DNA of 64,000 nucleotides, taken from IMG/VR virus record IMGVR_UViG_2706794685_000007, one strand, 5' to 3'. Position numbers and translations under genes: made by a program. The DNA is from an uncultured virus (IMG/VR IMGVR_UViG_2706794685_000007) (Duplodnaviria; Heunggongvirae; Uroviricota; Caudoviricetes). Of this stretch, positions 8,491-60,063 are shown piece by piece. A model generated the notes under the pieces. The model saw nothing but the letters and a program-made list of their open reading frames with translations, was not told the origin of the DNA and searched no databases. The stretch's first letter is position 1. Each line of letters opens with the position of its first letter.

Positions 8491-8584
8491 GTTGAATCTG
8501 CTCCTTTAATCAGGTGGGCTATCCTTGCCCACCATTAAGTATGTAACTACCTATTATTATCGATAAAAATATTTTTTTCCATAA

Positions 8585-11500
8585 TCAAAGTCGACCAATT
8601 CTTACCCTGAGTACATTATTGTCGTCGTAAACGTCGATTCTCTGCCCATTGATAACTAATCTCCCATTTCCTCCACTGTTACCGTTAATCTCAAGCGTTC
8701 CGTTTTTGCCAAATCTCCATCCGGCTCGTCCTCTTACGAAGTTTGTTGATTGTAAGTCACCTACCTTTGCGTTTGTGATAGTGCCATCTTTGATATAAGC
8801 ACCGTTCATATACGCAACGCTGTTTTCGATAACAAATGGCGTTGTGATCTTCCCATTAACATTGTTGACCAAACCAAATCGATCTGCCCGCACCAAAAAC
8901 TGAGAAAGCCCCGTTGTATCAATACCCAGCGCAATGCCCGCTACATACTTCTGCCCACCACTCGTTGAAGTTTCCATCTTCAATGTGTACGAGGTTGATA
9001 CTTTTCTATTAGCGTCAGCTATAGCAGAAGCCTGCTGCTGAATAACGGCAACATTTCCATCTACAGACGCTTTCAGTGTATCAATTCGTTTTCCTAGAGC
9101 GTTGTCTGCACTTGTTCTGGCCTTTGACTCTGACGTAATCGCTGCATTGATATAATTTGTTGTTTGCGACTGGAGATTAGTTACCCTTGTCGAAAGCGCT
9201 GCATCAGCATCAGTTCTGGCTTTCGTCTCTTCTGCTACAGCAGCCTTTATATCTTTACCTGTTTGTGTCTTTAGTGAGTTAATCTGCGACGTCAATGCGG
9301 TATCAGCGGCAGCTCTTGCTTGAGTTTCAACCGCAACAGCTGCACTTATATCCTTAGCAGTTTTTGTTTTAAAACTTGCCAAGTCTTTTGCAATGGCAGA
9401 ATCCTGACTTGTACGAGATGTCGATTCTCGCTCTATCGAGGACTGAAGATTATTAGCCCTCGTAGTAAGAGAAGAAATTTGTCTGGATAATGCATCGTTA
9501 GCGTCAGTTCTTGCTTTGGTTTCAACTGCTACCGCCGCTGCAATGTCTTTACCTGTTTTTGTTTTTAAACTACTAACTTCTCTTGATAGTGCACTATCGC
9601 CTGATGCTCTGGCTTCTCTTTCCTCATTAATAGCAGCTGATATGTCATCATCTACTTTTGCCTGCAATTGATTAATTTGTGTGGATAACGCTGAATCGCC
9701 GCTAACTCGCGCTTGTTGCTCACTTTTAATAGCAGCAGATATATCGTTATTAACTTTTGTTTGAAGTTGAGTTATTTGCCTTGATAATGCTTCATCTTGC
9801 GTTGCTCTTGTTTGTTGCTCTTCTCTAATAGCGGTTGAAATATCAGTATTTACTTTAGACTCCAGTTGTGTGATCTGCTTTGAAAGAGTCTCATTGGCCG
9901 ATGCTCTTGCAGATTGTTCGGTCCTTATTGCGGCACTGATATCACCTTCAAATTTACTCTGTAATTGTGTCACACGATTGGCTAACGCATTATCACCATC
10001 AGTTCTGGCTGTCGCTTCTTCGAGAATAGATGCTCGAATGTTGTCACCAATCTCGGCTCGTATCTCTTCAACCTTAGACGCCATTGCTGACACATCATCG
10101 ACAAGAATCTTTTGAGTCGTGGCAATTTTCGCGTTATTTACCAGCTGCCTGTGCTGATCTTCGTCCTGCCGCAACGCAAGATCGATATTTGTCTTAGAAA
10201 TGGCTTCAAGATTAGTTGTGATTTCTGAACTTACTCTTCCTACCTCAGCAACCGTTCTCCGCATTTCTTCTACAGCCGCAACACTTTCATCAACCGATGA
10301 TCTCATCGTTTCTATCTTTTTAGCATTCGCTAGATCTGCTTGTGCACGAACTTTACGCTCTTCGGCAATTAAAGATGATGCATTTTCAAGTGCCGCATTT
10401 GCTGCTTCTACGACACCAGCAACAGAATCACCTTGTTTTGATACTGTATTACGTAGTTCAATAAGTGCTGCATTTGAATTTTCAACTTGTCGTAATGCAT
10501 CATCTACTTTTTCCCGAGTGCTAGAAACTTCCGTTCTAAGCTCGCTTTGCGCATTCTCCAGTGTCTCGCTGCGTTCAGTAAACGATGTTTTGAACTCATC
10601 GATACTACTCGTTAGCTCCTTATTTAATGCGGAAATTTCACCTTCCAGAGATTCGACACTCTGATCGATATGATTATTGATTTCATCAACAGCTTGTTGA
10701 GAAGCCTTACTGTCAATTTCCTCATTTAAAGCCTGGCCAAGTTCTGACGAGGTAATTTTATTGGCTAAAAATGAAAGAACATCTCGCGTTGTGGCCTCTG
10801 TACCAAGATTTGAGTTTGGGCGACTCAACATGCCACGCTTATTTGCTGATCTAACCCAGTAATACCAAGTTTCACTATCCCCAAGACCAGCATGTGTAAA
10901 GGTGGTGCTTGCAGACTCTGCGATCAGTTTCGCCGTATCCAGATTGTTGGTCTGGGATGCGTAAACATTAATGTGATCAAGGTCTACCGAATCTGGATTG
11001 ACCCAATTCAGTATCACATTACGATAGTCCCCAACTGCCGTTAATGACGTTGGTGCATCCGGCGGTGTCATTGTGCCCAGCACCTGATAAACGGTACTGA
11101 TAATCTCTGTTTTTTTACCGTTGAATGAAACCGCATACAGTTGGAAGTCGTAGCGTCCATTCTCCGCGACATTAACGATTTCGTATTGCTCTTCGGTTAC
11201 ACGTGCCGATTGCCAGTTCGATACATTGTTTTCATCAGAACGTCGCCAACTGATCCAATACTCTGGAGATTTCCCTTCCCATGTTGCAGTCAGTTTTACT
11301 GACAGGTTGCCAGGGCTTGAGAGATAAGTCCCTTCAGTGATTTGCAAATTAGATGGCTTGGAGTAAGTCGGGTCCAATACCGTCGTATTCTGCGGGATAA
11401 GCGTTGCACCATTGTCGATTGCCTCATATTTAGACGGATTGTTCTCAACAGCGGTGATGTCAAAGCTACCCGACGTTTCCCCCTGAGCGATGTTAACGAT

Positions 11501-13898: not shown

Positions 13899-14683
13899 GC
13901 CTCATCTCCCTTGAGCAAGTCTCTGTGACGCAAGTGATGCGTCGTATGTTTCTGATACATCCCGCCGTAATAAGCACGACAACTAAGGCGGTCGATCTGG
14001 TGATGAAGAATCATTCCATCGCCGATATAAACCGCGCAGTGGTCAGGCATTTTTCCGTATTGGATAAAGAAGACGTCCCCACGTTGAGGTTCTGTTCCGG
14101 GCGCAAGCCGTACCAATCCTTCGTTTCGGTAGTTCTGGTCGAGAATGTCGTTATCGCCGGTGTACCACGATGGAATATGCAGGTGTGCGTTCGGGTTTAG
14201 TTCGACGTTAAACTCACGCTTCAAATAGTCCCGACACAACATCCAGCAATCGAATACGCCAAATACATACGGTCTACCCAGGTATGGCATTTCGAAACCA
14301 TCAGGTGTGATCACATTCATCTCGCTAAAATGGAAAGGGGCATCTCCCTCAACATTCTTGCGAATAGCCAGAATCATCCACGGAACTTCCGTCGCTTCGC
14401 AGCCTGCACGATCGGCATCAGATGCTTCTGCTGATTCATCAGTATGTGAATGCCAGATTGCGATAACATCACCCGCATCCTCAGCCGCCATAATGTCGTC
14501 AACGTGCATTACAAAAGTGTTCTGCGGGTTCTCCGAAACATTCCGCGCTTCCATAAAGCGATATTTGTCGCCATTAGTTCTAACCAGAAAGCCACACGCT
14601 TCATTAGGGTAGCGATTTATGGCGCAGAGATAGATTTGCTGCATAACGTCAGAGCCAAGCTCAGGGATTGCTTTATTACCCAT
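13886..14683 (-). CDS. Tail assembly protein K (JAB + NlpC/P60)
   Basis: YPNEACG, WHSH, FGVFDCW, HCAVYIG motifs. Confidence 0.9.
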   Translation of the reverse strand: MGNKAIPELGSDVMQQIYLCAINRYPNEACGFLVRTNGDKYRFMEARNVSENPQNTFVMHVDDIMAAEDAGDVIAIWHSHTDESAEASDADRAGCEATEVPWMILAIRKNVEGDAPFHFSEMNVITPDGFEMPYLGRPYVFGVFDCWMLCRDYLKREFNVELNPNAHLHIPSWYTGDNDILDQNYRNEGLVRLAPGTEPQRGDVFFIQYGKMPDHCAVYIGDGMILHHQIDRLSCRAYYGGMYQKHTTHHLRHRDLLKGDEACLS

Positions 14684-15374: not shown

Positions 15375-15456
15375 TGTTTCATCCTTGAAATAAGTAGGCG
15401 CTGACATCCTGTCAGCGCCACAATAATAGTAAATTAGCACTTACTTATCCAGATGC

Positions 15457-15792
15457 TTAAACCTCAAATACTTGTCTGAATGTAGCAGTTAAGACACAGT
15501 ACCCCTGATATCGCTTGACCGTATGACTGTCACATACAACTACAATCTGCTTGCCTCTTGGATTAACCCAATAGAACGATTCAACGCCTGATCGCTCAGT
15601 CAGGAAGTCATCGATTGCATTAATTTCGTTGTATGATCTGGTAAAGGTTAACGACCATTCTTCTTTAATACGATTAAGACCTTGAGCCTGTCGCTGCTCG
15701 TAGTCATCACCAAAATTAAGTACCGTTACATTCGGTTTTACGCTTTTTTCAGATTCGTAATCTGGATACCAATTAAACGTTTGTCTTTCCAT
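15457..15792 (-). CDS. Distal tail protein M
   Basis: FGDDYEQRQAQGLN, FLTERSGVESFYW, ATFRQVF. Confidence 0.9.
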   Translation of the reverse strand: MERQTFNWYPDYESEKSVKPNVTVLNFGDDYEQRQAQGLNRIKEEWSLTFTRSYNEINAIDDFLTERSGVESFYWVNPRGKQIVVVCDSHTVKRYQGYCVLTATFRQVFEV

Positions 15793-15834
15793 CTCACATC
15801 CTTGTGAGACTACCCCGGTCGGGGCAGTCGATAG

Positions 15835-18800
15835 TTAGTTACGTTGAGTGTTTGGGTTGAGTGATCCGCCAGGGCGTTTCTCTTGAGCGATAGTCTCAAG
15901 CGCGATTGCTTTCATCCGTTGAGCGGCATTGTTCCATATGCTTTCTGTATCGCCGGATTCAGTTGTGCTACCGTCACTATGGACGTTGATCTCAATTGAT
16001 ACCGGAGAAAGAACATTTCCTCCTCCACTCATACCATCGGTACTGAGCGTTACAGGGATTGTTCGACCATCAGGCAATGGAACATACGCCTCATTCATAT
16101 CGCCTTCCCCAAACAACGCCAATTGAGGTGAGTTGGCGATACCGCCTTTTTGGTATGCCCGGAGCGGGATCACGCCGTCTTTTCCGAATATTCCTCCATT
16201 TGCAAACTTCGGGATTGCAGGAATGCCTTTAGTTCCGTCAGCCACACTGCTGGTTGCGGTTTTAGCAGAGCTTGATGTCACGCTGTCGAAACCACCGCCA
16301 GCCCAAGCTGAAACAAGACCAGATGCAACCGTTGCTCCAAAACTCAACCACTTATTACCAGAGCCGGAAGCATTAGCTCCAAGCATTGCAAACGCGGCAG
16401 ACAGCGCGCCGGTAACAGAGCTGAGGTTCTGCATCGAGAAGATGGAGTCCTTCACGGCTTTTGTCTCGGCATCTTTGGCTTCAGTGCTATCAAATAGCCC
16501 TGATACCCAGCTACCAATCGCATTTGTTGCAGTGCCAATTGCGCTGGTGGTCTGCTGTGTTGTTTGCCCCAATCCAGTTACCGAACTGGACGTCTCCTTC
16601 GTGGCTTCTCCTACAGACTTGTCGCCGTTAACAGTGTTGCCCATTCGTACCCCTTGATTGGCAACGGCGGAAGCAACCCCGGTCAGCAAATTACCACTCT
16701 GTGAACTACCAGCTGCGGTGGTTCCCATCCCCAACATGTTCATTAGAGGCAGCGTGATCTGCGACTTCACGACCATATTGGTGATATCTTTCAAAATAGA
16801 CTGAGATAGGCTGGAGAAACTCATCTTCCCGTTAATAACGAAATCAGTCAGGACATCAGTTAAGCCACTAAACAAATCAGTCCAGGTGCTTTCGATCTGC
16901 TCTGCCAGGTTTTCGTATTCCAGTGCCAACTTCTGCGTCGCAGTCCCCGTCTCTTTAATAAGCGCGGTATTGCCAGCAGCAATCAGTTGATTGATTTTCT
17001 TTGTATAAAGCGCCACAACTTTAGGATCAGACGCCTTATCACGAAGTTCTATCAACGCTTTGAGATTGCGGTTGTAGGTGTCTTCGAAATCAGCAACTTT
17101 CTCTTCACGAGACGGCGTATAGCCAGCACTAATAATGGAATCCGACTCCGGTGCCCAGGTGGAGATCATCTGCTCAACATTGCGGCGATTAAACATCTCG
17201 CGATATTCAGGTGTCGCATTTTTGAGGTCTTCAAGACGTTTTTTCGCCTTGTCGATCATCTCTTGAGTGATGAACTCGTTAGGAACCGCATTAGCCAAAT
17301 CTGTCAGCGATTTCGTTGTATCGCGAAGAGACTGATCAAACGATACCGTAGCCTTAGAGCTTTCACCCATTTGCCCCATAAGCTGATCGGCTTTGTCCAG
17401 AGCCTTCTGGTATCCGGCTGCCAGTTTCTGTTGCGCTGCCTGTTCTTTCTTGGCCGCACGCTGCGAGGCATTAGCTGATCGTTGGGCTGCTTTTTCGGCG
17501 GCTGCTGCATCCTGTTCACGAGCTTTAGTCAGTGCAGCAATGGCTGCGGCACGCTCTTCATCGCTCATTTTCTCCAGAGAGCTGGCACTGGATGCTTTCT
17601 GCAAATTAAGCTGCGTCTTGAGTTGTTTAGGCCCAATAATCGGCTTACCTTCGAAGTCCATCATCGGAGTGCCGTCAGGCAAAGTACGCTGATAAGTCGC
17701 AGAATCCATCTGGTTTCGCATATATTGCGCCAACGCCTTCTGGGCAGCTTTATCAGTTGTACCTAACCCAAGAACAGTCCCCTGGTTTGACATTACGCCC
17801 TTACCAGTTTTGGCAGCGTTATCTCTCTCGAACTCTGCCTGAGTCAGTTCCTGAGCGACGACTTCCAAATTCTCCTGATAACCACGAATACTTCCTTGCA
17901 GTTTCTTGATCTGCTCGGTGTTTCCTTCCTTTTTCGCTTTTTCAAGCTGATCATTAAGAGTGGCTATTTGCCCCTCGACAGCATTCTTACGAGAAGAAAG
18001 TGAATCAACCAGTTTTTGCGCAGGCTCCAGATAGCTTTTGTTTACCGTTTCACGTAACGGTGCCAATAGCTTGTTCTTTTCGTCATCTGAAAGTGAACCG
18101 TCATCATTGATTTTCTGGATCTTATCCAGAGCCTCCTGCCGGGCTTTCACGAATGTTGCCGCAAAGTCTCTATTCTCTTCCCGTATTTTCTCTATCTGTG
18201 ATTCTGCCGCATCTTTTGCAAGACGTTTGGCTACAGCAATGTCTCCGCGTTCAATTGCCCCAGTAGTTTTATCGCGTTTCTTACGAAGGTCATTTAGCTC
18301 ATTTTCTATACGCTTACGTTCATCCTGATTAATCTTTACTGTAGTTCCGGCCATACCCGGCCCATAAACCACCTTTTCGCCAGATTTTAACTCTTGTTCC
18401 TTTTGCGTGATTTGTTGCTCAAGACGCGCTTTATACTCCGCCATCTGTGCACGTTTGGCCGCCGTCATCGCCTCTGGTATTTTCCTAATCTCGTCAACGA
18501 CCTTTGAAGTTTCGCTGCGGAGCATGGTCATGTACGTGATTAGGCCAGCAACAGCTACAGTGGCAACTGTAAATGCTGCCCCTATAGGATTTGCTGCAAT
18601 GAACGCCGTTAATCCAGCAAAAGCGCCTTTAAGCCCCGTAATCGCCCCACGGATGGCGAAAATAAGAGAGGGGATCGGAGCCAGCCCCATACGTGCCGCA
18701 CGATTGAATCGAGTTACTGCTGTAGCGCCGAGGTTAAATGGAGTCTGTATGGCGGTCGCCATCGTGGCAAAGGTGCTAACCATCTGGCTGCCTGCGCCAA

Positions 18801-21072: not shown

Positions 21073-21139
21073 TTGTTAAAATCCTTTTAAAAGAGAGGCC
21101 CATCATGAGCCTCAATTTATAGATTAATAAGTTGCTTGA

Positions 21140-21877: not shown

Positions 21878-21950
21878 TGATGGAAACTCCTTTTTCCGTT
21901 AATTTCACGCATTCATTGCGCTATATTTAAGTATATACTTACCTATTTAT

Positions 21951-24483: not shown

Positions 24484-24580
24484 TACGCTTTCTCGCTATA
24501 CAGGCATATTTAAAACCTACAAAAAGGGTGGGCGTATAGCCCACCCTTAAGCATAGGTAATTACATACCTATTGTTTTAG

Positions 24581-25501: not shown

Positions 25502-25526
25502 CTATCAATTCCCTTTGATTTAGATG

Positions 25527-26414: not shown

Positions 26415-26435
26415 AAAAATTCCTTTTGTTACTTA

Positions 26436-28010
26436 TCACTCGTTCTCTTGAGTAGATGAGTCCCCATTCCCTCGGGGTTGATCTTGCCCGCTTTCTTGGG
26501 CTGCACCACGATCATAAGTAAGTACTGACTTATTTTCAAGGGTATTTAGATCATTTTTTGGAGGAAAATTCAAGAGATCTTTATCAAATTCCTTTTTCAT
26601 CGCCTCAGTAATGTTCGGGAAAATCTTCTCAATAAGCATTTCCATCTGGTGACGACGTACAGAGTCCGGTGCCTGAAGTAATGACAGTTTCTCGGCAACA
26701 GAAAATTCATCAGTAAGGCCACGAATATCGAAACTTTCTGGATACGCAATTAAAGAGTGGTCTTCGTCCAGATCTACCCCCATCCATTTCGCAACCAGTA
26801 GCATGATTTGGCGTTCAGCCCTTTCCAGACGCTCTGCTTTTGTGACAAGCAAGCTATTTACACGCTGGAAGTCATACATTTTTGCGGCACCAGATGAATT
26901 ATCGATTCCCTGTGCGTTGTCCTGCTTCGTTCGCTCACCAGCTACACCAACTGAATGGTAGATTTCGTTAATCACCGTCTTAATCGTAGTGATGATCATC
27001 TGAGCTTGTTTCGGGTCTGGTGACAGATAAAACGGCTGGTTTCCACCTTCAGAATCGTAGGTGAAGACTCGCTTTGTGCCCATTTCAAGCACTTTAGTGT
27101 GGTTTTCATCACCAGGTAAAAGCGACTGTACCGGTATAGCCAACTGGCTAAATGTCTGATCCTGAATAATGGCATCAAGGTTTGACAGATAGTTTGCAAC
27201 CGCACGATCAAGATAAGCGATATCATCGATCAACGATGGGCTGAAATACGGTGATTCACTTTCTCCAATACAATCAACAGGAAACACAGGAACTACGCCG
27301 AGATTATGCTCACCGCTATCCTCTAAAATAACTTTTGCCTGACGGCGACCTGCTCCACCAGCGCCCTTCTTCACTTCCTCACGGAACAGATACCACTCGT
27401 TTTGTGTCCACAGACGATAACGTTGGTATTCCTGACCTGTAGAAGTAAAAGGATCTGCGTCATCACGAGCGACTTCCACAATTAACGCCCACAACATATT
27501 CCCGTCGTCGTCCCATGCCACATCCAGCATTTGCTGAGGTGAAATCCAGTAGGCGTAGGCGCGAGCATCTTTCTTTTTCTCGTCAGCTACTGACTCAACA
27601 TCACCACTCATCGTGCTATCGACAACAACCCATATGCGACCGTAAATAGACGACTGCAAATCAATGGCGGCCATAAATGAGTCAATAGAGGCATTCTGGC
27701 GAGTCGCACGTTTCCAGAAATTGCGGATCTGCTCTGGTGCCTCTTCGATATTTCTATGAATGTCTTCTTTAAAGAGATATTTGTTGATGAGGTTTACCAC
27801 CTCACGAGTGTGGTTGAAGCGATAGGCACGCTCAACACGCTCCTTAAACTCCTGATCTCCCTCTTTAAAGTAACGAAAGATATTGTCTGTAAACCAACCA
27901 CGCCCGCCAGCGTAAGTGCTGGCGAGGAAGTCCCAATGTTCTTTTTTCTTTTCGTATTCCGGGTGGCGTCGCGCCACCAGATCCTTAATTTGTTTGTCGT
28001 TCAAATCCAT
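26436..28010 (-). CDS. Portal protein
   Basis: 524 aa after TerL; LGVVPVFPV, SSGAAK motifs. Confidence 0.85.
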   Translation of the reverse strand: MDLNDKQIKDLVARRHPEYEKKKEHWDFLASTYAGGRGWFTDNIFRYFKEGDQEFKERVERAYRFNHTREVVNLINKYLFKEDIHRNIEEAPEQIRNFWKRATRQNASIDSFMAAIDLQSSIYGRIWVVVDSTMSGDVESVADEKKKDARAYAYWISPQQMLDVAWDDDGNMLWALIVEVARDDADPFTSTGQEYQRYRLWTQNEWYLFREEVKKGAGGAGRRQAKVILEDSGEHNLGVVPVFPVDCIGESESPYFSPSLIDDIAYLDRAVANYLSNLDAIIQDQTFSQLAIPVQSLLPGDENHTKVLEMGTKRVFTYDSEGGNQPFYLSPDPKQAQMIITTIKTVINEIYHSVGVAGERTKQDNAQGIDNSSGAAKMYDFQRVNSLLVTKAERLERAERQIMLLVAKWMGVDLDEDHSLIAYPESFDIRGLTDEFSVAEKLSLLQAPDSVRRHQMEMLIEKIFPNITEAMKKEFDKDLLNFPPKNDLNTLENKSVLTYDRGAAQESGQDQPRGNGDSSTQENE

Positions 28011-28036
28011 TTGAATAACCTTAGATAATTACTTAC

Positions 28037-29293
28037 CTATCGAGAACCACCAAGAATAACACGGTTTTTGACTGGATACCTACGATGTACTGGATAGCCC
28101 AATGCGTCTGCACTATGCTCAATGCCACCTGTCTTATCCATATCTCGTGTTCCAGGCTTGTAGATGACTTTTTCCAGTGAATCAATCAAATGCTTGCACT
28201 TCGGATCGATATACAGCCGGATATCTCCAGATGCGGACATCAGCATTCGGTTAACAGCATTAACACGATCCGCAATTGGCGGGTGCTTTTTCGAATAATC
28301 GACACGTAAGAATCCCTTCTCTTTGAATATGTCTACGTCAGACTCCCCACGAGCATGTTGGCGATAAGCACCTGCCGGATCTGGAAATACCGTTACCTGT
28401 GATTTCCAGCGCCAGAAGCGTCTCTCAAGCTCATCACAAACTTCTGCCGTGTTAGAGGAAAAGAGCACCAATTCATCAATTGCCCATAGCTCACCATTTG
28501 GCTGAGGTTGCAAAATTACTGAAGACATCGGGTCAATGTTGAAGTCCTGCCCTACCCATATAGGCAACCGAGGGTTGAACTGAAGCGGTTTTACATGCAC
28601 GTTACGATCGAACGGGTAGTAAACGCGCCCGGACATGTTCTCAAAGCTGGCCAGGTACTCCTGAGCGAACGATTTGGGGTCCATATCGTTCTTAGCAGCT
28701 TCAATTTCCGCCGTAGGTACAAACGGAGAATCGGCAGTTACAAACTGCCAGCTCTTCCACTGTCCCTTTCTTTGCAGCTCTACGTTCTGGCCTATAGTCC
28801 ACAGTTTGTGAAATTCCGAGAAGCCTTTTGGCGTACCAATGATCAGTGCACCGCCGCGTGTCGATGAAAGAGTAGGTCGTAACACCTTGTACCAGGTGTC
28901 AGCCTTCATATCCTGAAATTCATCAAGCACTACAAAATGCAACGCTACGCCGCGCAGAGTGTCAGGCTTATCAGCACCTTTGAGGGCGATCTCCGAACCG
29001 TTCTTCAACACGATTGTCATCGTGGTGTCGTTCTTTTTCCTAACCCACTTACGAGGCAGAACTTCCTGTAGATCGTCCCACAAAATCTGGCGAGCCATCT
29101 GGTAAGTAGGAGCGACATACCAGACCCTTTGCTTTTTTTCCTTTGCCGCCGCACGAATAATAGTGGAGATCGACAACCGGGATTTTCCCCAGCGTCGACC
29201 AGCACAAACAACTTTAAATCGATGCGGAGACTGGAAGACTTTCATCTGTCCAGAATGCAGTTGCACAAGACTGAGCGAGGACGGGATTGCCAT
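28037..29293 (-). CDS. Terminase large subunit
   Basis: AGRRWGKS Walker A, VVLDE Walker B, IGTP, GQDFN and HSADALGY nuclease motifs. Confidence 0.95.
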   Translation of the reverse strand: MAIPSSLSLVQLHSGQMKVFQSPHRFKVVCAGRRWGKSRLSISTIIRAAAKEKKQRVWYVAPTYQMARQILWDDLQEVLPRKWVRKKNDTTMTIVLKNGSEIALKGADKPDTLRGVALHFVVLDEFQDMKADTWYKVLRPTLSSTRGGALIIGTPKGFSEFHKLWTIGQNVELQRKGQWKSWQFVTADSPFVPTAEIEAAKNDMDPKSFAQEYLASFENMSGRVYYPFDRNVHVKPLQFNPRLPIWVGQDFNIDPMSSVILQPQPNGELWAIDELVLFSSNTAEVCDELERRFWRWKSQVTVFPDPAGAYRQHARGESDVDIFKEKGFLRVDYSKKHPPIADRVNAVNRMLMSASGDIRLYIDPKCKHLIDSLEKVIYKPGTRDMDKTGGIEHSADALGYPVHRRYPVKNRVILGGSR

Positions 29294-29925
29294 TATTTGT
29301 CCTCCCCTTCACTTCCATCATCTGTCGCATCAAATTCGCTTAGAGCTTCTTCTTCCAACGTCTCAAGCAATTCGTCATCGATGATTTCAGGCTCGTCGTC
29401 TTCCTGACGTAATTTCGCCACCTGGGAAGGCGTAAGCTCACCAAATACCAGGTTCGGAATTTCTTCCTCGTCATTTTCCGCATGATCCATGCCCAATGCT
29501 TTGGACGAAACTTCAAAGCATTTTGCAAGGGTATTACTGGCTCTCTGTAAGCTCTTGAGAGAATCCTCAATCGCCCCTAAAGGCTTACCCTCACGTTTGG
29601 CCGTAGTGACTTCGACCATCACCATCTGCCCCAACGCATACGCCCAGCCGTCATAACGTGTACGACGTTCTTCTATCTTTTCCGCACGGGCTTTAGCGCG
29701 AAGCTCTGCGTCAGATTTAAGAGACTCACGAACCATCTTCCCAACAGAGTCCGCGCCTTTCTCTAATCCTCGCTTTTTGAAATGTCTGGAGAGTGTTTCA
29801 CGACGAATGCCGTACTCTTCCTCCAGCTTTGAGAGTGTATATTCGCCTGACGTCCATTTGGCTTCAGCTTCGGCCCACTCCGCTGGTGTCAGGCGAGTTT
29901 TTACCTCGTCTTTTTCGACCGTCAT
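29293..29925 (-). CDS. Terminase small subunit
   Basis: N-terminal HTH (LSKLEEEYGIRRETLSRHF), coupled to TerL, acidic tail. Confidence 0.75.
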   Translation of the reverse strand: MTVEKDEVKTRLTPAEWAEAEAKWTSGEYTLSKLEEEYGIRRETLSRHFKKRGLEKGADSVGKMVRESLKSDAELRAKARAEKIEERRTRYDGWAYALGQMVMVEVTTAKREGKPLGAIEDSLKSLQRASNTLAKCFEVSSKALGMDHAENDEEEIPNLVFGELTPSQVAKLRQEDDEPEIIDDELLETLEEEALSEFDATDDGSEGEDK

Positions 29926-30120
29926 AGATCCCTCTAAAACACACAGAGCGCGTCCATGCGCTCTAAAACAACTTGTTTACTGCATCTGCTAACCAACTTG
30001 TTTTCTGGGGTGTTTAATTAGGTCTGGCATGTCTTACGAAGCCTGCTTCCGTATATATTTAATAAGTTACTTATTATTTATATATACAGATGCAGGTCTT
30101 TAAATAAGCTCCCAGACCGA

Positions 30121-30387: not shown

Positions 30388-30396
30388 GGCAAATCC

Positions 30397-31287
30397 TTAT
30401 GCCGGTAAAGCAATTTCTAACGGTTTATCCAAAGGTTGTTTGTCGAATGCCAGCAATGGCAGCGTGTCAGGCAGTCGACGACCAAAGTCAGGGTTTCGAT
30501 ACACACCATACAACGGAGACGTAAAGCTCAGGTTGTGAATGTCCTTGAGCAGCTTCACAATGCTGGCCTCGTCCACCAGACTGTCGGCAATGTCCTGAAT
30601 CGTCGTGCCACGATTCCGCCCAGCTTTTGCCAGGGAACTGTTCTTGTGGTAGTCCGCCACCAGATCACGCAGTGCACGGCGACGACGAGACTCGCTCATT
30701 GCGAACAACTCTTTGACGATCGCCTCGTTATCACCCGTGTCGGAACGGAAATGGCGCTGGAATACACGCAGTGCACTTTCATAGCTCTTCGGTCGCTCAG
30801 GGCGGATGAACTTAAACCCTGCTTTCATGGCGAAGGGATTGTATTTGCTCATCGAGGACTGGATCTCAATGATTGGCCGGTCATGCATCCTGCTAACCAG
30901 GTTAATCATTCGATAAGAGACGCCTACGCCACGATACTGAGTATCCACAACTGAGCGACTGATCACCGCAAAGTTGTTATTCACGTACCGACCCCAGTAC
31001 TGGTTAGCCACGGTGGTATTAGTGGTTGGTTTCAACTTAGGAAACATGCGGTGGCGAGGTGCCAACAGTAGTTTCGGGTAAGCCATAACCACGACGCCCA
31101 CCAGACGATCATCAAGTTCGCAGCGATAGTAAGTTGGCGCGAAAGGTTTGCCGTCTGTTTTGTAGTGAAGCGACTTAAGAGCGTGCCAGTCCTCTACAGT
31201 TCCCTTTGTAACAGTCATTCGCTCCAGAAAGTCCAGATGACGCGGAAACTCTTCAGGGCGGTAGCGTTTAATGATGATGTCCGTCAT
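30397..31287 (-). CDS. GNAT-fold (Mom-like) acetyltransferase
   Basis: SLHY, LVGVVVMAYP, ISRSVVDTQYRGVGVS (GNAT motif A). Confidence 0.7.
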   Translation of the reverse strand: MTDIIIKRYRPEEFPRHLDFLERMTVTKGTVEDWHALKSLHYKTDGKPFAPTYYRCELDDRLVGVVVMAYPKLLLAPRHRMFPKLKPTTNTTVANQYWGRYVNNNFAVISRSVVDTQYRGVGVSYRMINLVSRMHDRPIIEIQSSMSKYNPFAMKAGFKFIRPERPKSYESALRVFQRHFRSDTGDNEAIVKELFAMSESRRRRALRDLVADYHKNSSLAKAGRNRGTTIQDIADSLVDEASIVKLLKDIHNLSFTSPLYGVYRNPDFGRRLPDTLPLLAFDKQPLDKPLEIALPA

Positions 31288-33294: not shown

Positions 33295-33376
33295 TTTATT
33301 GCTACAATCCACTAAGTAATCACTTACTTATTATAATAGCCAAATAACATACAAAAGGCACTAAGGAAAGAGGTTT

Positions 33377-36483: not shown

Positions 36484-37098
36484 TTGGATTATCATGATAT
36501 GAAAATGAAACTTTCGTTACTCCTTGCTTGCATATACCTCCCGGCGTTTTCCGCCAACGCATTATCAGATTTCGTCTCTGACATGCAAAAAACGTACAGC
36601 ATGTTTACCTCCGAAGACGTAGTAGAATACAAATCACGAGGTCTGAATCAGCCAGTTTGGTTCAGATTCTCAGACAACGCAGAAGAAACAATACTTAATG
36701 GAGGAAAAGAAAGATTACGGTTGCAAATTAACGGGACCGCTGTACCAGAAAACGTTAATGTAAGCTCTGACGAAGCCATGAAGCCATCTGGAATTGTTTT
36801 AGAAGTTCAAGACGGCACACTTTACTGTGATGAAATGGCTACAACAGGTTGCCAAGTAAACATTAGGGTTGGCAATGAAGACCCTATCGTTACTTACGCC
36901 AAGGCTGAAGGGAATACAAGTGGAAAGGTATTGTTTATCGATGAAAATACCTCAAAACGTATCGTTCGTGACATACAGAAAACAGCGAACTCTAAATCCG
37001 TCGATAAAAAAATCTATGTTGAGGTTCCCTTCTTTGTCGTTGGTAACAAAGAATTTAAATTTGGGTTGCTGAAAACACCTCTAAGAGTATCAGAATGA
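36484..37098 (+). CDS. Putative exported protein
   Basis: Signal-peptide-like MKMKLSLLLACIYLPAFSANA. Confidence 0.6.
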   Translation: MDYHDMKMKLSLLLACIYLPAFSANALSDFVSDMQKTYSMFTSEDVVEYKSRGLNQPVWFRFSDNAEETILNGGKERLRLQINGTAVPENVNVSSDEAMKPSGIVLEVQDGTLYCDEMATTGCQVNIRVGNEDPIVTYAKAEGNTSGKVLFIDENTSKRIVRDIQKTANSKSVDKKIYVEVPFFVVGNKEFKFGLLKTPLRVSE

Positions 37099-37619
37099 GA
37101 ACATTGGACATCACCTACGGCATACCGGCTGAAGTATGGCCGCGAGACTACGAACATGCTGAACGTACCTTGCTCTTCTGGCGGAAAGCTAAATTTCCTG
37201 TCAGAGTCACACTTGAAGATGGTCAGGTGTTTTGCATGTATGTGCAGGGAACAATGTCTTCCCGCAACAAGCTAGATTTATGTCCAGCACCGCTTGATAA
37301 TGACAATCGTATAAGACTCCCACTTGAGCGCATTAGTACAATTGAATCAGGTGTCATTGATGGCATTGCTTACGATTTCAAAGGGAGACTAACAATACAT
37401 CCTGACTATGTAGATAACCAGCCATCACGTCGTGACTTTTTTAAGATATGTCGTCAGGCTTACCAAAACGGCAAATCTATAAGGGTCTACATGGCAGACG
37501 GTCGCGAAATTGAGGGAACGTCAGATGGTGTTGACGCCTGTCTAGTCACACTTAAGTTGGAGGACGGTAGAAAAATACTTATTTTCTTCGATTGGGTTGA
37601 ACGAATCCTTCCGTTCTAA
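37095..37619 (+). CDS. Protein with two Sm/Hfq-like repeats (inferred)
   Basis: PVRVTLEDGQVF...LPLERISTI and SIRVYMADGREIEG...IFFDWVERI. Confidence 0.5.
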   Translation: MRTLDITYGIPAEVWPRDYEHAERTLLFWRKAKFPVRVTLEDGQVFCMYVQGTMSSRNKLDLCPAPLDNDNRIRLPLERISTIESGVIDGIAYDFKGRLTIHPDYVDNQPSRRDFFKICRQAYQNGKSIRVYMADGREIEGTSDGVDACLVTLKLEDGRKILIFFDWVERILPF

Positions 37620-41399: not shown

Positions 41400-41524
41400 A
41401 TCACTCTCCATAGTGTCTTGGTTATTTTTCTATTTTATAGACATAGGTATGTACTTACAATACAAAAAACCCCGTAAGGATGGCGGGGCTGTCGTACTGT
41501 CGACTAATTACCACTTGCACATTA

Positions 41525-44901: not shown

Positions 44902-46935
44902 TTACTTAACCTGGTGGCCAGGTTTAGCACCAGCATCCGGGCTTAACAGGAAGATATCTTTCCCGCCAGGACCGGCAGCCATCACCATGCCTTCAGAGAT
45001 ACCGAAGCGCATTTTACGTGGTGCCAGGTTAGCCACCATAATGGTGTGACGACCAATCAGTGCCTGTGGATCTGGATAAGCGGAACGGATGCCTGAGAAG
45101 ACATTACGCTTTTCACCACCGAGATCCAGCGTCAGGCGAAGCAGTTTGTCAGAACCTTCGACAAACTCCGCGTTTTCAATCAGCGCCACACGCAGGTCAA
45201 CTTTGGCGAAGTCGTCAAAGGTGATGGTTTCCTGAATCGGTTCGTCAGCCAGTGGGCCAGTTACCGGTGCAGCTGTGGCTTTCACTTCTTCTTTGGATGC
45301 TTCCACCAGTGCTTCCACCTGTTTCATATCGATACGGTTATACAGTGCCTTGAACGGATTCACTTTATGGCCCAGAAGCGGTTGCTGGATACCATCCCAG
45401 GTCAGTTCTGTATTCAGGAATGCTTCTGCACGTTCAGTCAGTTTCGGCAGTACCGGTTTCAGGTACGTCATCAGCACGCGGAACAGGTTAATGCCCATAG
45501 AGCAAATCGCCTGCAGATCTGCATCGCGACCTTCCTGCTTCGCCACCACCCACGGAGCCTGTTCATCGACATAGCGATTAGCCAGGTCAGCCAATGCCAT
45601 GATTTCACGGATAGCTTTACCAAATTCGCGGCTTTCCCATGCTTCGCCAATCACTTCAGCGGCATCAGTAAAGGTTTTGTACAGTTGCGGGTCAGCCAGT
45701 TCGCTTGTCAGCACGCCGTCAAAACGCTTGTTGATAAAGCCTGCATTACGGGAGGCCAGGTTAACCACTTTGTTCACGATATCGGCATTCACGCGCTGAA
45801 CGAAATCTTCCAGGTTGAGATCGATATCATCAATGCGCGAAGAGAGTTTCGCAGTGTAGTAGTAACGCAGGCTGTCAGCGTCAAAATGATTCAGCCAGGT
45901 GCTGGCTTTAATAAAGGTGCCGCGAGACTTGGACATCTTCGCGCCGTTCACCGTCACATAGCCGTGAACAAACAGGTTGGTCGGCTTGCGGAAGTTGCTG
46001 CCTTCCAGCATGGCAGGCCAGAACAGACTGTGGAAGTAAACGATATCTTTGCCGATGAAGTGGTACAGCTCGGCGGTGGAGTCTTTCTTCCAGTATTCGT
46101 CGAAGCTTACGCTGTCGCCGCGCTTGTCGCACAGATTCTTGAAAGAACCCATGTAGCCAATCGGCGCGTCCAGCCAGACGTAGAAATATTTGCCCGGCGC
46201 GTTCGGAATTTCAAAACCGAAGTAAGGGGCGTCGCGGGAGATATCCCACTGTTGCAGGCCAGATTCAAACCACTCCTGCATTTTATTTGCCACCTGCTCC
46301 TGCAACGCACCGCTGCGGGTCCATGCCTGCAACATTTCGCTGAAAGAGGGCAGATCAAAGAAGAAGTGTTCAGAATCACGCATTACCGGCGTAGCGCCAG
46401 AAACCACCGATTTCGGCTCGATCAGTTCAGTCGGGCTGTAGGTCGCGCCGCAGACTTCGCAGTTATCGCCGTATTGATCCGGGGATTTACATTTCGGGCA
46501 GGTGCCTTTTACAAAACGGTCCGGCAGGAACATGCATTTTTCCGGATCGTACAGCTGTGAGATGGTGCGGTTTTTAATAAAACCGTTTTCTTTCAGGCGA
46601 GAGTAGATAAGCTCGGACAACTGACGGTTCTCTTCGCTGTGCGTCGAGTGATAGTTGTCATAGCTGATGTTAAAGCCTGCGAAATCAGTCTGATGTTCCT
46701 GACTCATTTCGCCAATCATCTGTTCCGGTGTGATACCAAGCTGCTGTGCTTTCAGCATGATTGGCGTACCGTGGGCATCGTCGGCACAGATGAAATTAAC
46801 CTCGTGGCCGCGCATTCGCTGGTAACGAACCCAGACATCAGCCTGGATGTGCTCCAGCATATGGCCGAGGTGGATTGAGCCGTTAGCGTACGGCAGCGCG
46901 CACGTCACCAGAATTTTCTTCGCGACTTGGGTCAT
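44902..46935 (-). CDS. metG: Methionyl-tRNA synthetase (677 aa)
   Basis: [25 protein letters not shown], Zn knuckle CPKC/CEVC, KMSKS, C-terminal tRNA-binding domain; Escherichia-type sequence. Confidence 0.98.
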
Positions 46936-47092: not shown

Positions 47093-48193
47093 ATGAGCGA
47101 GTCCAAATCGCCGGATGCCCTGAGAGCAATGGTAGCCGGTACGCTGGCTAATTTTCAGCACCCAACCCTGAAACACAACTTGACTACGCTTAAAGCGTTA
47201 CACCATGTTGCGTTGATGGATGACACACTGCATGTCGAACTAATCATGCCTTTCGTGTGGAATAAGCCTTTTGAAGACCTGAAAGAGCAATGTAGTGGTG
47301 ATCTGCTCCGTATCACTGGCGCAAAGGCTATTGACTGGAAGCTGTCGTACAACATTGCCACGCTTAAGCGCGTCAAAAACCAACCAGGCATTAATGGCGT
47401 TAAGAACATTATCGCCGTCAGCTCAGGCAAGGGCGGCGTGGGTAAATCCTCCACAGCAGTAAACTTGGCACTGGCTTTGGCTGCTGAAGGTGCGAAAGTT
47501 GGTATTTTGGATGCCGATATCTATGGTCCATCAATTCCAACCATGCTGGGCGCGGAAAACCAACGTCCAACCTCACCGGACGGTACTCACATGGCACCTA
47601 TCATGTCTCATGGCCTGGCAACCAACTCTATTGGTTATCTGGTCACCGATGACAATGCAATGGTGTGGCGTGGACCGATGGCGAGCAAGGCGCTGATGCA
47701 GATGTTGCAGGAAACACTGTGGCCTGATCTGGACTATCTCGTTCTCGATATGCCACCGGGCACTGGTGATATTCAATTGACGCTGGCGCAGAACATTCCT
47801 GTAACTGGTGCGGTTGTGGTAACTACGCCGCAAGACATCGCGCTGATCGATGCGAAGAAAGGCATTGTGATGTTCGAAAAAGTCGAAGTGCCGGTACTGG
47901 GTATCGTTGAAAACATGAGTGTGCATATTTGCAGTAACTGCGGTCATCACGAGCCAATTTTTGGCACCGGTGGAGCACAGAAACTGGCCGAGAAATACAA
48001 CACGCAGTTGTTAGGCCAAATGCCACTTCATATCTCTCTTCGTGAAGATCTGGATAACGGAACACCAACCGTTATTAGTCGTCCAGATAGCGAATTTACG
48101 GCTATTTATCGTGACCTCGCAGATCGCGTTGCTGCCCAAATGTATTGGCAAGGTGAAGTAATACCTGGCGAAATCGCATTCCGCGCAGTGTGA
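47093..48193 (+). CDS. apbC: Mrp/ApbC Fe-S cluster carrier ATPase
   Basis: SGKGGVGKSS, DADIYGPS, VWRGPM, DMPPGTGD, CSNC; divergent from metG as on enterobacterial chromosomes. Confidence 0.96.
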   Translation: MSESKSPDALRAMVAGTLANFQHPTLKHNLTTLKALHHVALMDDTLHVELIMPFVWNKPFEDLKEQCSGDLLRITGAKAIDWKLSYNIATLKRVKNQPGINGVKNIIAVSSGKGGVGKSSTAVNLALALAAEGAKVGILDADIYGPSIPTMLGAENQRPTSPDGTHMAPIMSHGLATNSIGYLVTDDNAMVWRGPMASKALMQMLQETLWPDLDYLVLDMPPGTGDIQLTLAQNIPVTGAVVVTTPQDIALIDAKKGIVMFEKVEVPVLGIVENMSVHICSNCGHHEPIFGTGGAQKLAEKYNTQLLGQMPLHISLREDLDNGTPTVISRPDSEFTAIYRDLADRVAAQMYWQGEVIPGEIAFRAV

Positions 48194-52476: not shown

Positions 52477-52477
52477 C

Positions 52478-55011: not shown

Positions 55012-55072
55012 ATGTTTTTCTCTTATCGTTTAGTTATTACATTCTTACACAAATTAAGTAAGTATTTACCTA

Positions 55073-56758: not shown

Positions 56759-56784
56759 AATTGCACCATTAAGAAATGATTTGT

Positions 56785-57047
56785 NNNNNNNNNNNNNNNN
56801 NNNNNNNNNNNNNNNNNNNNNNNNNNNNNNNNNNNNNNNNNNNNNNNNNNNNNNNNNNNNNNNNNNNNNNNNNNNNNNNNNNNNNNNNNNNNNNNNNNNN
56901 NNNNNNNNNNNNNNNNNNNNNNNNNNNNNNNNNNNNNNNNNNNNNNNNNNNNNNNNNNNNNNNNNNNNNNNNNNNNNNNNNNNNNNNNNNNNNNNNNNNN
57001 NNNNNNNNNNNNNNNNNNNNNNNNNNNNNNNNNNNNNNNNNNNNNNN
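56785..57047. other. Undetermined sequence (N gap)
   Basis: Run of N. Confidence 1.
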
Positions 57048-57498: not shown

Positions 57499-57503
57499 TA
57501 TTG

Positions 57504-57785
57504 TTATCCCCAATATGTATATATATAAGATCCAAGTCCCTTGTATAAATTTGACCAACTTACTGTATTGCCGTTAATAGTGATAGTTGGTGTAGGTATA
57601 TTTACATGGTTATCGTTATTTAAAGGCATCAATGAGCACACAGCATGTAATGATTTGCCAGGTGGTGGATTTGGGTAAGTCTTAGAGCCTGACGTGGTTG
57701 TAAATCGATCAAGAAAAAAAATAGGAGTAAGGAAGCCGGTAACGTTAACTCCCTTATTATTGTAGATCCCTGTACCGTATGCCAT
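57504..57785 (-). CDS. Probable small tail-tip protein of the type normally downstream of J
   Basis: MAYGTGIYNNKG...SGSKTY...PTITINGNTVSWS. Confidence 0.6.
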   Translation of the reverse strand: MAYGTGIYNNKGVNVTGFLTPIFFLDRFTTTSGSKTYPNPPPGKSLHAVCSLMPLNNDNHVNIPTPTITINGNTVSWSNLYKGLGSYIYTYWG

Positions 57786-57839
57786 TTTTCATCCTTGTTT
57801 TTATCAACATAATATGGCCGATCATGCGGCCATATCAGA

Positions 57840-58409: not shown

Positions 58410-58548
58410 ATGTTTTCCTTAATGCTTAAACAAGTTGTTTTCTTATTGGCTTTATTGTGATGTGGCATAAAAGGGGAGCAAGCTAAACGTAAAGGTGCAA
58501 ACTCTCTATTTCGGTCAACGAAACACAATGGCCATTTGACCCTTGTCA

Positions 58549-58707
58549 TTAACACGTTGCTTTACGGACTAGCGGATAAGCGAAGTAGATCGCCAGACCA
58601 ATGAGGACGCCATCAGAAATGACAGACATCATCTTTCCCGTAAAATCCACCAACACCGCCATCACCAGAAGAGCAATGACGGTCACAAGCCGGAATCTCT
58701 CAAGCAT
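58549..58707 (-). CDS. Small membrane protein (DUF3927-like)
   Basis: Manual translation MLERFRLVTVIALLVMAVLVDFTGKMMSVISDGVLIGLAIYFAYPLVRKATC; coupled to the TerB-like gene. Confidence 0.65.
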   Translation of the reverse strand: MLERFRLVTVIALLVMAVLVDFTGKMMSVISDGVLIGLAIYFAYPLVRKATC

Positions 58708-59132
58708 TAGAGATAAGCATCCAGTGACAACTGAAGCGCCTGGGCGATCTTTTTCAGCGCCTGCTCTTCTGGTTCATCAATGCCGTCTTGGTCGGCAATA
58801 TCAAGGCACAGACAAAGTACATCTACTGCATCATCAGTCCCGGCCACATCCGCCAGCTCACGTAAAGCCTGGGCATTAGCACGGCGCGGTGAGGCTTCGT
58901 ATTGAGCGCGGATATTGGCGCTCATCTGGGCAATCTCACCAGCAAAAGGAGAAAATGCAGGCAGAGCTGCAATTGTTTTCTCAAGAATGGAAATTTCTTT
59001 TGCATCGCATGTACCGTTGGCATAGGAGATCATGTACCCACCCCACACGGTGGCTTCAACCGCATCACGGTTCTCCATTTTTTTGACTTCGATAACTGCT
59101 TTACGAGTTTTCTTTTTGAAGAAACCTAACAT
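58707..59132 (-). CDS. TerB-family protein
   Basis: ENRDAVEA, IADQDGIDEPEEQALKKIAQALQL. Confidence 0.8.
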   Translation of the reverse strand: MLGFFKKKTRKAVIEVKKMENRDAVEATVWGGYMISYANGTCDAKEISILEKTIAALPAFSPFAGEIAQMSANIRAQYEASPRRANAQALRELADVAGTDDAVDVLCLCLDIADQDGIDEPEEQALKKIAQALQLSLDAYL

Positions 59133-59225
59133 GTGTTTTCCTTTTGTTATTGGTCAAAACAAGTTGTTTTCTAGTTAAATAAATTGCTTACGCAAAGACG
59201 GTCAATGCATATGCACTAACAACCG

Positions 59226-59414
59226 TCAGAAATAACCAAGTACCGAACCGACTGGAAAAATAAAAATCCCAACTACACGAGCCAAGGTCATGCCAGCCTG
59301 AAACTGGAGATCGCCAGAGCAAACAAGTTTTATAATGTTCGATACCCAACCGGCGGCCATGAGGGCAAGAATTGCCAGCCAAATTTTTCCAAAGTGATTT
59401 GAAAACCAGTTCAT
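59226..59414 (-). CDS. Small membrane protein
   Basis: GWVSNIIKL...ARVVGIFIFPVGSVLGYF. Confidence 0.65.
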   Translation of the reverse strand: MNWFSNHFGKIWLAILALMAAGWVSNIIKLVCSGDLQFQAGMTLARVVGIFIFPVGSVLGYF

Positions 59415-59423
59415 ACAACCGCC

Positions 59424-59918
59424 TTAGTCACAGCATGATCCTGAGTAACTGGATGAACTTGAGGTATCGCATCCACCGTCATCCCATCCAGAGTGACAGG
59501 TCGCTCTACTGGAGTGGTGGTAATTGTCGTCGACGGAGGTGTGGTGATGGATGAATCCGGCATCAAAAGGCTCTGACCGGCTGGAACGGCTACCGTCGCC
59601 AGTGAAACTATAATGAGAACGTAGGCCATTGGTTTCAGCCTCTTTCTTTGAAAATTTTCCATTCGAACTGTCCTTGTTGTTTTTCTCCTTCACTAAAGGC
59701 CGTGCATTTTTCGCTTCGCGTGAAGAACCAGAGGCAACAATCGCCCACACGTTCGCAACAACTGACGCTTGATTATCTAAACGTTCATTCAGCAACCGAA
59801 CGGTAGTCTCTAGTTCATCAAGGCGTGACATAACACGACCGCTAAATAATTCGGCCAAAATTTGACGTAAAGAACGAGGACGTTTAGTTACAGAAGTGAA
59901 ATAGGTTTGACGTGCCAT
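59424..59918 (-). CDS. Hypothetical protein with low-complexity Ser/His/Cys tail
   Basis: GGAG RBS before ATG 59918. Confidence 0.55.
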   Translation of the reverse strand: MARQTYFTSVTKRPRSLRQILAELFSGRVMSRLDELETTVRLLNERLDNQASVVANVWAIVASGSSREAKNARPLVKEKNNKDSSNGKFSKKEAETNGLRSHYSFTGDGSRSSRSEPFDAGFIHHHTSVDDNYHHSSRATCHSGWDDGGCDTSSSSSYSGSCCD

Positions 59919-60063
59919 GTGGACTCCATCCAGTGTCATAAAGAGTTGCGGCTGGCAATCGCCAGCCGCCTTTCTCGTTCCATCCTGGAACTGTGTCTTA
60001 CCGACACATTGTCATCCTGACGCCGATAAGATACATGATTTATAATGATAGGTAAACACTTAC

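Follow-up and report, generated by a model that had tools for sequence, protein, structure and literature searches.

GGA-loop hairpins in the virion-gene leaders of an SSU5-type phage-plasmid, with host CsrA as a candidate reader

The element and the hairpins of its virion and lysis leaders

The window analysed here, a stretch of 64,000 nucleotides from an uncultured virus of the Caudoviricetes (IMG/VR record IMGVR_UViG_2706794685_000007), is 64 kb of an SSU5-type phage-plasmid, and many leaders of its virion and lysis genes, which occupy the minus strand between ~33 and 3 kb, carry small hairpins that display the trinucleotide GGA in their loops. The assignment follows from nucleotide comparison: between 8000 and 22000 the window is 100% identical to Escherichia phage CMS-2020a (CP054387.1), 97.8% to phage PhiR41_1, ~90% to phage Cyrano and 79.5% to Salmonella phage SSU5, and a single 800-bp probe retrieved 780 related plasmid records from Klebsiella, Escherichia, Enterobacter, Yersinia, Salmonella and Citrobacter. 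The hosts of the relatives are Enterobacterales by record, and the record of PhiR41_1 gives E. coli K-12 as the infected host. Two runs of N, at 4341-4623 and 56785-57047, were masked, and the genes overlapping them were excluded from all counts.

Two kinds of hairpin may be distinguished in these leaders (Table 1). The first are small hairpins that hold the GGA of the Shine-Dalgarno (SD) sequence in the loop, a few bases 5' of the start codon; the second, stronger and GC-rich, lie 20-25 nt further upstream with loops of the form A(N)GGA(U), often right behind an 18-bp palindrome described below and in some cases with a terminator-like tail. A preliminary description of the window had listed nine GGA-loop hairpins as candidate sites for the host protein CsrA, and all nine were read on the minus strand where it had placed them and were found again by script. 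Four of these (8513, 15397, 59977 and 60011) had been set apart as lying outside the SD, and they do lie 34 to ~100 nt 5' of the start codon. The statement that such hairpins occupy the leaders of many virion genes held for the virion and lysis block, where hairpins at the SD are in excess, but not for the pair at 59977 and 60011, which precede a non-virion gene, and the gene labels "wHTH" and "G" found no support in Pfam. The latter is kept here as a handle for the gene after the tube gene.

GGA sites occur in twos in the leaders of L (-35 and -10), the fibre gene (-34 and ~-14) and TerS (-30 and -6), and a single GGA site is found in the window in the leaders of M, G, the tube gene, the capsid-like gene, the DUF6651 gene and the 88-aa gene. 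Minimum free energy (MFE) folds retain the L, M, fibre, tube and 59977 hairpins, and the SD hairpin of G and the TerS hairpins are absent from them. Relative to shuffled sequences, the fibre fold and the tube fold are not unusually stable (z = -0.87 and z = -0.22). At the junction between the tape-measure gene and M (15775-15835, minus strand; MFE z = -3.7) the start codon of M is base-paired in the predicted fold with bases just 3' of the tape-measure stop codon, which as modelled is a layout for translational coupling by unfolding.

Table 1. Hairpins, leader elements, palindrome copies and the FljA-family gene of the window, with positions in the whole stretch
Feature	Position	Strand	Description
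SD hairpin, lysis-region gene	3382..3397	-	start 3376
Fibre SD AAGGAG	8501..8506	-	outside any hairpin; second GGA ~20 nt 3' of the loop GGA
Fibre-leader upstream hairpin	8513..8533	-	7-bp GC-rich stem, loop AAGGATA; GGA 34 nt 5' of ATG 8490; in MFE fold
SD hairpin, tail-assembly gene I	13901..13915	-	start 13898
L SD hairpin	15377..15390	-	TTTCA/TGAAA stem, loop AGGA, GGA at -10
L-leader upstream hairpin	15397..15419	-	9-10 bp stem, loop core ACAGGATGT, GGA at -35; terminator-like pattern also fits
M SD hairpin	15792..15809	-	7-bp stem, loop AGGA, contains ACAAGGATGT
Hairpin 3' of tape-measure stop codon	15810..15827	-	GC-rich, loop GACC
SD hairpin, gene after tube gene (G)	21076..21090	-	6-bp A/T stem, loop GGA; absent from MFE fold
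Terminator-like hairpin after tube gene (G-leader hairpin)	21095..21113	-	followed by TCTTTT; loop without GGA in the window
Tube-gene SD hairpin	21882..21897	-	GGAAA/TTTCC stem, loop AAGGAG
Tube-leader hairpin	21907..21921	-	behind palindromic motif; loop ATGAA, without GGA
Hairpin and TTTTT after capsid-like gene	24526..24546	-	intrinsic-terminator form, behind palindrome copy 24554-24571; loop TATAC
Capsid-like gene SD hairpin	25504..25519	-	start 25501; loop AGGGAA
DUF6651 gene SD hairpin	26416..26427	-	start 26414; 4-bp A/T stem, loop GGAA
TerS SD hairpin	29925..29936	-	TAGA/TCTA stem, loop GGGA; SD GGA at -6
TerS-leader upstream hairpin	29945..29964	-	loop ATGGAC, GGA at -30; absent from the preliminary list
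88-aa gene SD hairpin	30388..30403	-	start 30387; 4-bp stem, loop TAAGGATT
FljA-family gene (Flag1_repress)	37095..37619	+	174 aa; PF03614, E = 8.8e-80; candidate phage-encoded reader
Structured 5' leader of hypothetical 164-aa gene	59920..60035	-	start 59918; gene follows RNase H gene; non-virion
SD hairpin of 59918 leader	59920-59932	-
Hairpin of 59918 leader	59948-59969	-	GC-rich, terminator-like
Hairpin of 59918 leader	59977-59991	-	CAGGATG loop
Hairpin of 59918 leader	~59994-60006	-
Hairpin of 59918 leader	60011-60021	-	CAGGATG loop
Palindrome copy	8536-8553		fibre
Palindrome copy	15430-15447		L
Palindrome copy	21928-21945		tube leader, 0 mismatches
Palindrome copy	24554-24571
Palindrome copy	26515-26532
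Palindrome copy	28022-28039
Palindrome copy	30063-30080 (approximate)
Palindrome copy	33313-33330
Palindrome copy	~41441-41458
Palindrome copy	55055-55072
Palindrome copy	60049-60066		59918 leader
Palindrome copy	62264-62281

Excess over chance and conservation among relatives

For counting, a hairpin was defined as a perfect stem of at least 4 bp with a loop of 3-8 nt. The minus strand holds 1473 such small hairpins, 100 of them with GGA in the loop, and a hand-picked list alone would therefore mean little. GGA was nevertheless the commonest trinucleotide in the loops (97/912, or 10.6%, against 7.4% overall; rank 1 of 64), and it ranked first again when stems of at least 6 bp were considered (16/912 in loops against 0.8% overall).

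The position of GGA relative to the start codon gave a sharper measure. Start codons were taken from the annotation of PhiR41_1, from which 76 of 104 could be mapped, and nine starts from our own open reading frames were added; five rows that mapped to a non-start codon (38606, hit by two queries, 44143, 48618 and 59137) were dropped, as were leaders containing N. A GGA 6-17 nt 5' of the start, the SD zone, is present in 55 of the 79 leaders, and in the whole window 14 of these 55 stand in the loop of a perfect hairpin of at least 4 bp. Shuffling each leader gave 4.3±2.0, with 1 of 500 shuffles reaching 14, and swapping 3' flanks among leaders, a null that preserves positional composition, gave 5.1±2.2, with 1 of 2000 swaps reaching that count. 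Within the virion and lysis block, 9 of 17 SD GGAs were found in hairpin loops against 2.1±1.3 after flank swapping (0/2000), and with stems of at least 5 bp the count was 5/17 against 0.74 (0/2000). All other genes of the window gave 5/37 against 3.7 expected (604/2000), which confines the excess to the virion and lysis block. The division into virion and other genes follows the claim made in the preliminary description and so was not a free choice after the fact.

Neither control genome showed a comparable excess, with 6/46 against 3.7 expected (329/2000) in lambda and 5/45 against 2.9 expected (332/2000) in a 49-kb region of E. coli K-12. The same count in relatives of the element gave 10/23 against 3.2 in SSU5 (0/1000), 9/22 against 2.8 in an Enterobacter plasmid (0/1000) and 5/16 against 1.6 in a K. 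oxytoca plasmid that is only ~65% identical (17/1000). Orthologous genes in these relatives build different stems around the same SD loop. The stem of the L SD hairpin is ACTCA/TGAGT in a group of relatives at 74% identity, that of M differs in the Klebsiella and K. oxytoca relatives to give three different stems overall, and that of the capsid-like gene is ATCAA/TTGAT in the window, TCAT/ATGA in SSU5 and ATATA/TATAT in K. oxytoca. The SD hairpin of G is kept in relatives with shifted stems, that of the tube gene is invariant except in stem length, and that of the 88-aa gene is unchanged in three relatives and missing from K. oxytoca. The hairpin 3' of the tape-measure stop codon has the loop GGAA in SSU5 and in the Enterobacter plasmid, and its stems covary.

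The upstream hairpins were followed over a larger set of relatives, for which the neighbourhoods of five genes were fetched from IMG/VR and searched under a strict rule (at least 5 bp, G·U allowed, at least three G-C pairs). In the L leader a hairpin was found in 70/80 loci and a GGA loop in 68/80, on 14 different 5' arms; the exceptions include one locus with an AGAAT loop and a six-locus group that lacks the hairpin. The TerS leader has a GGA loop in 72/73 loci, reading ATGGAC, AAGGAT or AAGGAA (A[AT]GGA[TAC]), and its upstream hairpin shows a compensatory stem change in relatives. The terminator-like hairpin after the tube gene has a GGA loop in 59/70 loci (AGGAT, AGGAA, TGGA), with the window among the 11 that lack it, and the fibre leader has a GGA-loop hairpin in 42/63 loci, with 13 distinct 5' arms; the fibre loop is CTG in an 11-locus group and ATAGAAC in PhiR41_1 and one IMG/VR locus. 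In the tube leader a hairpin is present in 69/74 loci and a GGA loop in 1/74, the usual loop being ATGAA. Stem covariation around invariant GGA loops had been proposed as a check on the original idea, and it was borne out for L, TerS, the G leader and the fibre gene, where neighbouring loop bases and stems vary while GGA stays, but not for the tube leader.

Covariation in the L stem was quantified on an ungapped, loop-centred alignment of 21 distinct hairpins. Seven of the 80 loci, which lack the loop core (L035 and L082-L087), were left out of it, and a MAFFT alignment of the whole M-L spacer was not used for pair counts because it placed gaps inside the stem. Paired cells made up 96.8% of the stem, against 71.2±2.4% in shuffles (0/500) and 27-57% when the partner was slid. 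In seven of nine pairs both partners have changed, and G·U, a pair that works only on the mRNA strand, appears as an alternative in two. Judged by these substitution patterns, the upstream hairpins outside the SD are conserved RNA structures.

A separate arrangement was seen in one IMG/VR relative, in which six tandem GATGGT units (L035:734-844) take the place of the L-leader hairpin.

Candidate readers of the GGA loops

The hairpins on the late (virion) messages of the SSU5-type phage-plasmid are genuine RNA structures under selection, and the best-fitting known reader of their GGA loops is host CsrA, a candidate that we put forward tentatively. A search of the whole PhiR41_1 record for csrA (PF02599) gave no match at E <= 1, with an E. 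coli genome positive as control, which makes a host protein a sensible candidate. Passages of the CsrA literature place the bound GGA in apical loops in the context A(N)GGA (PMC4066749), give AUGGA in apical loops as the motif obtained by crosslinking and immunoprecipitation (CLIP; PMC5207318), and describe the SELEX consensus RUACARGGAUGU together with a two-site, tether-and-bridge mode of binding (PMC2896534). The hairpins fit these published rules, having GGA in an apical loop, the context A(N)GGA, AUGGA or CAAGGAUG, and, in the leaders of L, the fibre gene, TerS and the 59918 gene, an upstream site in addition to one at the SD. Upstream loops read AAGGAT, ATGGA and CAGGATG. As read from the listings of the relatives, the base after GGA in these loops is mostly U and rarely G, which fits the CsrA consensus rather than pairing with the anti-SD sequence, where G would be favoured. 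Late SD sites agree with the SELEX consensus at 9 or more of 12 positions in 6/17 cases, against 2/37 in the rest of the window, 2/46 in lambda and 1/16 in lambda virion genes; the M hairpin, which does contain the ACAAGGATGT reported earlier, agrees at 10/12.

Together, the two kinds of hairpin would form a two-site layout for a dimeric protein that binds GGA loops. Host CsrA, once bound at the upstream loop, would reach across to the SD loop and keep ribosomes out, and synthesis of virion proteins would have to wait until late mRNA is in excess over free CsrA or CsrB/C have sequestered the protein. Two CsrA sites can be bridged over a distance of 10-63 nt, and the sites of the L, fibre, TerS and 59918 leaders fall within that span. 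What is observed are the hairpins, together with their excess, conservation and agreement with the CsrA rules, and from there we infer the binding of a protein, its identity as CsrA and the direction of its effect.

A close likeness is to the colicin lysis gene cel of ColE7, for which Yang et al. describe repression by CsrA through one GGA looped out by a terminator hairpin between cistrons (T1) and a second at the SD (Yang et al. 2010, PMC2896534). There too an extrachromosomal element carries a late or lysis function behind a terminator-loop GGA and an SD GGA, and this two-site layout matches the L, TerS and fibre leaders and, in relatives, the G leader; cel differs in being one gene for which binding and regulation were shown, whereas here about ten virion-gene leaders of a phage-plasmid are putative targets. 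Chromosomal CsrA/RsmA operators (glgC, pgaA, cstA) share the apical-loop GGA, the A(N)GGA context and the upstream tether with an SD site. Unlike them, the phage leaders have long, GC-rich upstream stems (7-10 bp), several of which are terminator-like, and the targets are phage structural genes. Phage translational repressors that act at hairpins of the ribosome-binding site (RBS) include the MS2 coat protein, on the replicase operator, and T4 RegA. These resemble the mechanism proposed here in having the operator of a translational repressor in a hairpin that contains or borders the RBS, but they are phage-encoded, act on one or a few early genes, and have operators that are not GGA loops.

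The original proposal of CsrA as reader stands in part: site rules, excess and conservation agree with it, but some equivalent hairpins lack GGA and the element has a conserved FljA-family gene whose product could be the reader instead. Several further observations weigh against host CsrA. GGA is not universal in the upstream hairpins, being nearly absent from the tube leader (1/74) and missing from the post-capsid loop TATAC and from the G leader of the window, and the fibre loop lacks it in PhiR41_1, in one IMG/VR locus and in the 11-locus CTG group. The relatives do not count as independent samples: most double changes in the L stem come from one Klebsiella/E. coli split, so that independent events are few. 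A GGA-like sequence is required in any SD, and display of the SD in a loop might do no more than help initiation. Several upstream hairpins look like intercistronic terminators or attenuators, and the confinement of the excess to virion genes would be natural for a dedicated phage regulator, for which an FljA-like candidate exists. The GGA-less sister hairpins imply that the hairpins have a function for which GGA is not needed; their basic role is probably that of attenuators, stabilisers or coupling devices that do without it, and the GGA looks like an added, selected feature.

It is possible, if somewhat unlikely, that no trans-acting reader is involved at all. The small hairpins would then be cis-acting presenters or insulators of the RBS, keeping the SD single-stranded in long polycistronic messages, or would couple a gene to the one upstream; the upstream hairpins would be attenuators or stabilisers of mRNA ends, and the loop GGA a by-product, for example of a duplicated SD-like sequence. 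Such a view accords with the occurrence of the hairpins at genes at least 20 nt from the upstream gene and not at overlapping gene pairs, with the pairing of the M start codon to the bases after the tape-measure stop, a classic coupling layout, and with the terminator pattern of the L and 59948-59969 hairpins and the T runs behind the post-tube and post-capsid hairpins. The tube leader, with the same kind of hairpin in 69/74 loci and a GGA loop in 1/74, and the folds of the fibre and tube leaders, which are no more stable than shuffles, can be counted in its favour as well. What it leaves unexplained is the retention of GGA at TerS (72/73), L (68/80) and the G leader (59/70) while stems and other loop bases change, when a random loop of 5-7 nt would by our own estimate hold GGA in a few per cent of cases only. 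The U after GGA is likewise unexplained, as pairing with the ribosome would favour G, and the virion genes of lambda do without such hairpins (2/16 virion-gene SD GGAs, among the six lambda hits).

A second alternative, which we consider unlikely, is that the reader is the FljA-family protein of the element itself, keeping virion genes untranslated in the plasmid-prophage state. It would work by analogy with FljA on fliC mRNA, or with T4 RegA and the MS2 coat protein. FljA-type repressors are described, in a passage of the source cited, as preventing translation of fliC mRNA (PMC2652032). The gene is kept in 9/10 related records, namely 5/5 whole records of relatives, including Klebsiella pneumoniae and K. 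oxytoca plasmids, and 4/5 IMG/VR records, the miss being an 84%-complete record, which marks it as a core gene of SSU5-type elements. As K. pneumoniae does not normally bear flagella, retention of the gene there cannot be explained by a fliC target. An AlphaFold model of the protein (mean predicted local distance difference test score, pLDDT, 80.5; predicted template modelling score, pTM, 0.78) has two units, each a helix plus five strands, and matches Hfq structures with target TM scores of 0.68-0.83; root-mean-square deviations were 1.1-1.8 Å over 56-61 columns in 19 of the 30 matches listed, and the predicted fold would be an RNA-binding one. The 5' untranslated region of E. coli fliC has a GGAA-loop hairpin 5' of an AGGAU SD, and an excess confined to virion genes suits a dedicated phage factor.

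The resemblance to FljA and fliC consists in the presence of an FljA-family protein on the element and, for the fliC leader, in a general likeness of layout; unlike FljA with fliC, the phage protein is a candidate reader by analogy. In the K. oxytoca lineage the FljA-like protein has diverged strongly (35.5 bits; the other four records score 243-323), yet the AGGAT loops persist, and an invariant host reader therefore fits better. For the loops to agree with the CsrA consensus nothing further need be assumed, and the FljA-like protein could instead act only on host flagellin, or on DNA. A more specific version, which we regard as speculative and less likely still, is that the hairpins are operators of the FljA-family protein as a tandem Sm/Hfq-like RNA binder that would lock virion translation in the plasmid-prophage state, perhaps competing or cooperating with CsrA on the same GGA loops, with the 59920-60035 leader as a possible small decoy RNA for the same reader. 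Among the papers listed by a literature search for FljA with Sm or Hfq terms none mentions FljA, and a search for FljA with SSU5 or pHCM2 elements returned none linking them in this sense. Were this version true, FljA, the repressor in Salmonella phase variation, would be a translational repressor of phage late genes that has been domesticated.

Chance or composition, by which A/T-rich leaders with an obligatory GGA would form small inverted repeats that are then picked by eye, is a highly improbable explanation and already largely refuted: the 100 GGA-loop hairpins on the minus strand, the weakness of 4-bp A/T stems such as AAAAggaaTTTT and the invariance in relatives of several SD hairpins, which are hence uninformative on structure, are in keeping with it, but the flank-swap null is exceeded (1/2000 for the window, 0/2000 for the virion block), lambda and E. 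coli are without excess, stem covariation is strong, and orthologous genes in the 65%-identical relative have different stems.

The 59918 leader, the palindromic motif and the wider meaning

The two CAGGATG hairpins outside the virion block belong to the leader of the gene that starts at 59918, in which three GGA sites were found. Both are kept in 29/30 loci, and the middle hairpin covaries in a divergent locus (L275). The leader, ~150 nt long (59920-60066, minus strand), is more conserved than its gene, being kept in L275 at 64% protein identity. A long-range MFE fold of this leader was rejected, as it is not kept in L275, where the local hairpins are. Nothing in the window reached the gathering score of an Rfam family, and 59850-60120 was without an Rfam match at E <= 10. 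The leader could be a cis-regulatory RNA or a small RNA.

Also found throughout the element was an 18-bp palindrome, TARGTA-N6-TAYYTA, with 25 matches at up to 2 mismatches (~13 sites, nearly all intergenic) against 0.49 expected. It occurs at nearly every larger intergenic gap, and the L, fibre and tube hairpins, the post-capsid hairpin and the 59918 leader lie just 3' of a copy; at the portal gene it overlaps the TerL stop codon and the portal SD. In the K. oxytoca relative the half-site at the corresponding places differs (TATGTA..TACATA), as would be expected if a DNA-binding protein co-evolved with its sites. By analogy with the C1 sites of P1, the palindromes are probably dispersed operators. 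A reading of the motif as an RNA hairpin was rejected as its main interpretation, some copies having A·C mismatches on the sense strand. Sigma-70 pattern hits are placed inconsistently, preceding the motif at the fibre leader and following it at the L leader, and so speak neither for nor against a promoter at the motif. The terminator pattern fits the hairpins at 15397-15419 and 59948-59969 and does not fit the fibre hairpin, and T runs follow those at 21095-21113 and 24526-24546.

The stretches ~30042-30097 and 29966-30003 (minus strand), upstream of TerS, hold a long inverted repeat, AT-rich at its centre, and two copies of AACAAGTTG(G/T)TT. The linear record of SSU5 begins 134 nt 5' of TerS, and this is therefore probably the packaging (cos/pac) region. 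Among the accessory genes of the window are a full-length methionyl-tRNA synthetase (44905-46935, minus strand), a Mrp/NUBPL-type P-loop ATPase (47093-48190, plus strand) and a TerB-domain protein (58710-59132, minus strand).

To our knowledge, the control of lytic genes in SSU5-type phage-plasmids is essentially unstudied. A literature search covering CsrA with phage late genes, lysogeny and phage-encoded CsrA turned up no report in which phage structural genes are controlled by host CsrA, and a passage of a 2025 paper calls the role of CsrA in phage life cycles untested (PMC11879866). The system is directly testable in E. coli K-12, where the natural GGA-less loop variants can serve as controls. 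Phage-plasmids of the SSU5 type are common in E. coli, Klebsiella, Salmonella and Enterobacter, and if GGA-loop operators were conserved on virion messages across the family, this would place the gate on particle production at translation and would tie it to the global Csr state of the host or to a phage protein of the FljA family.

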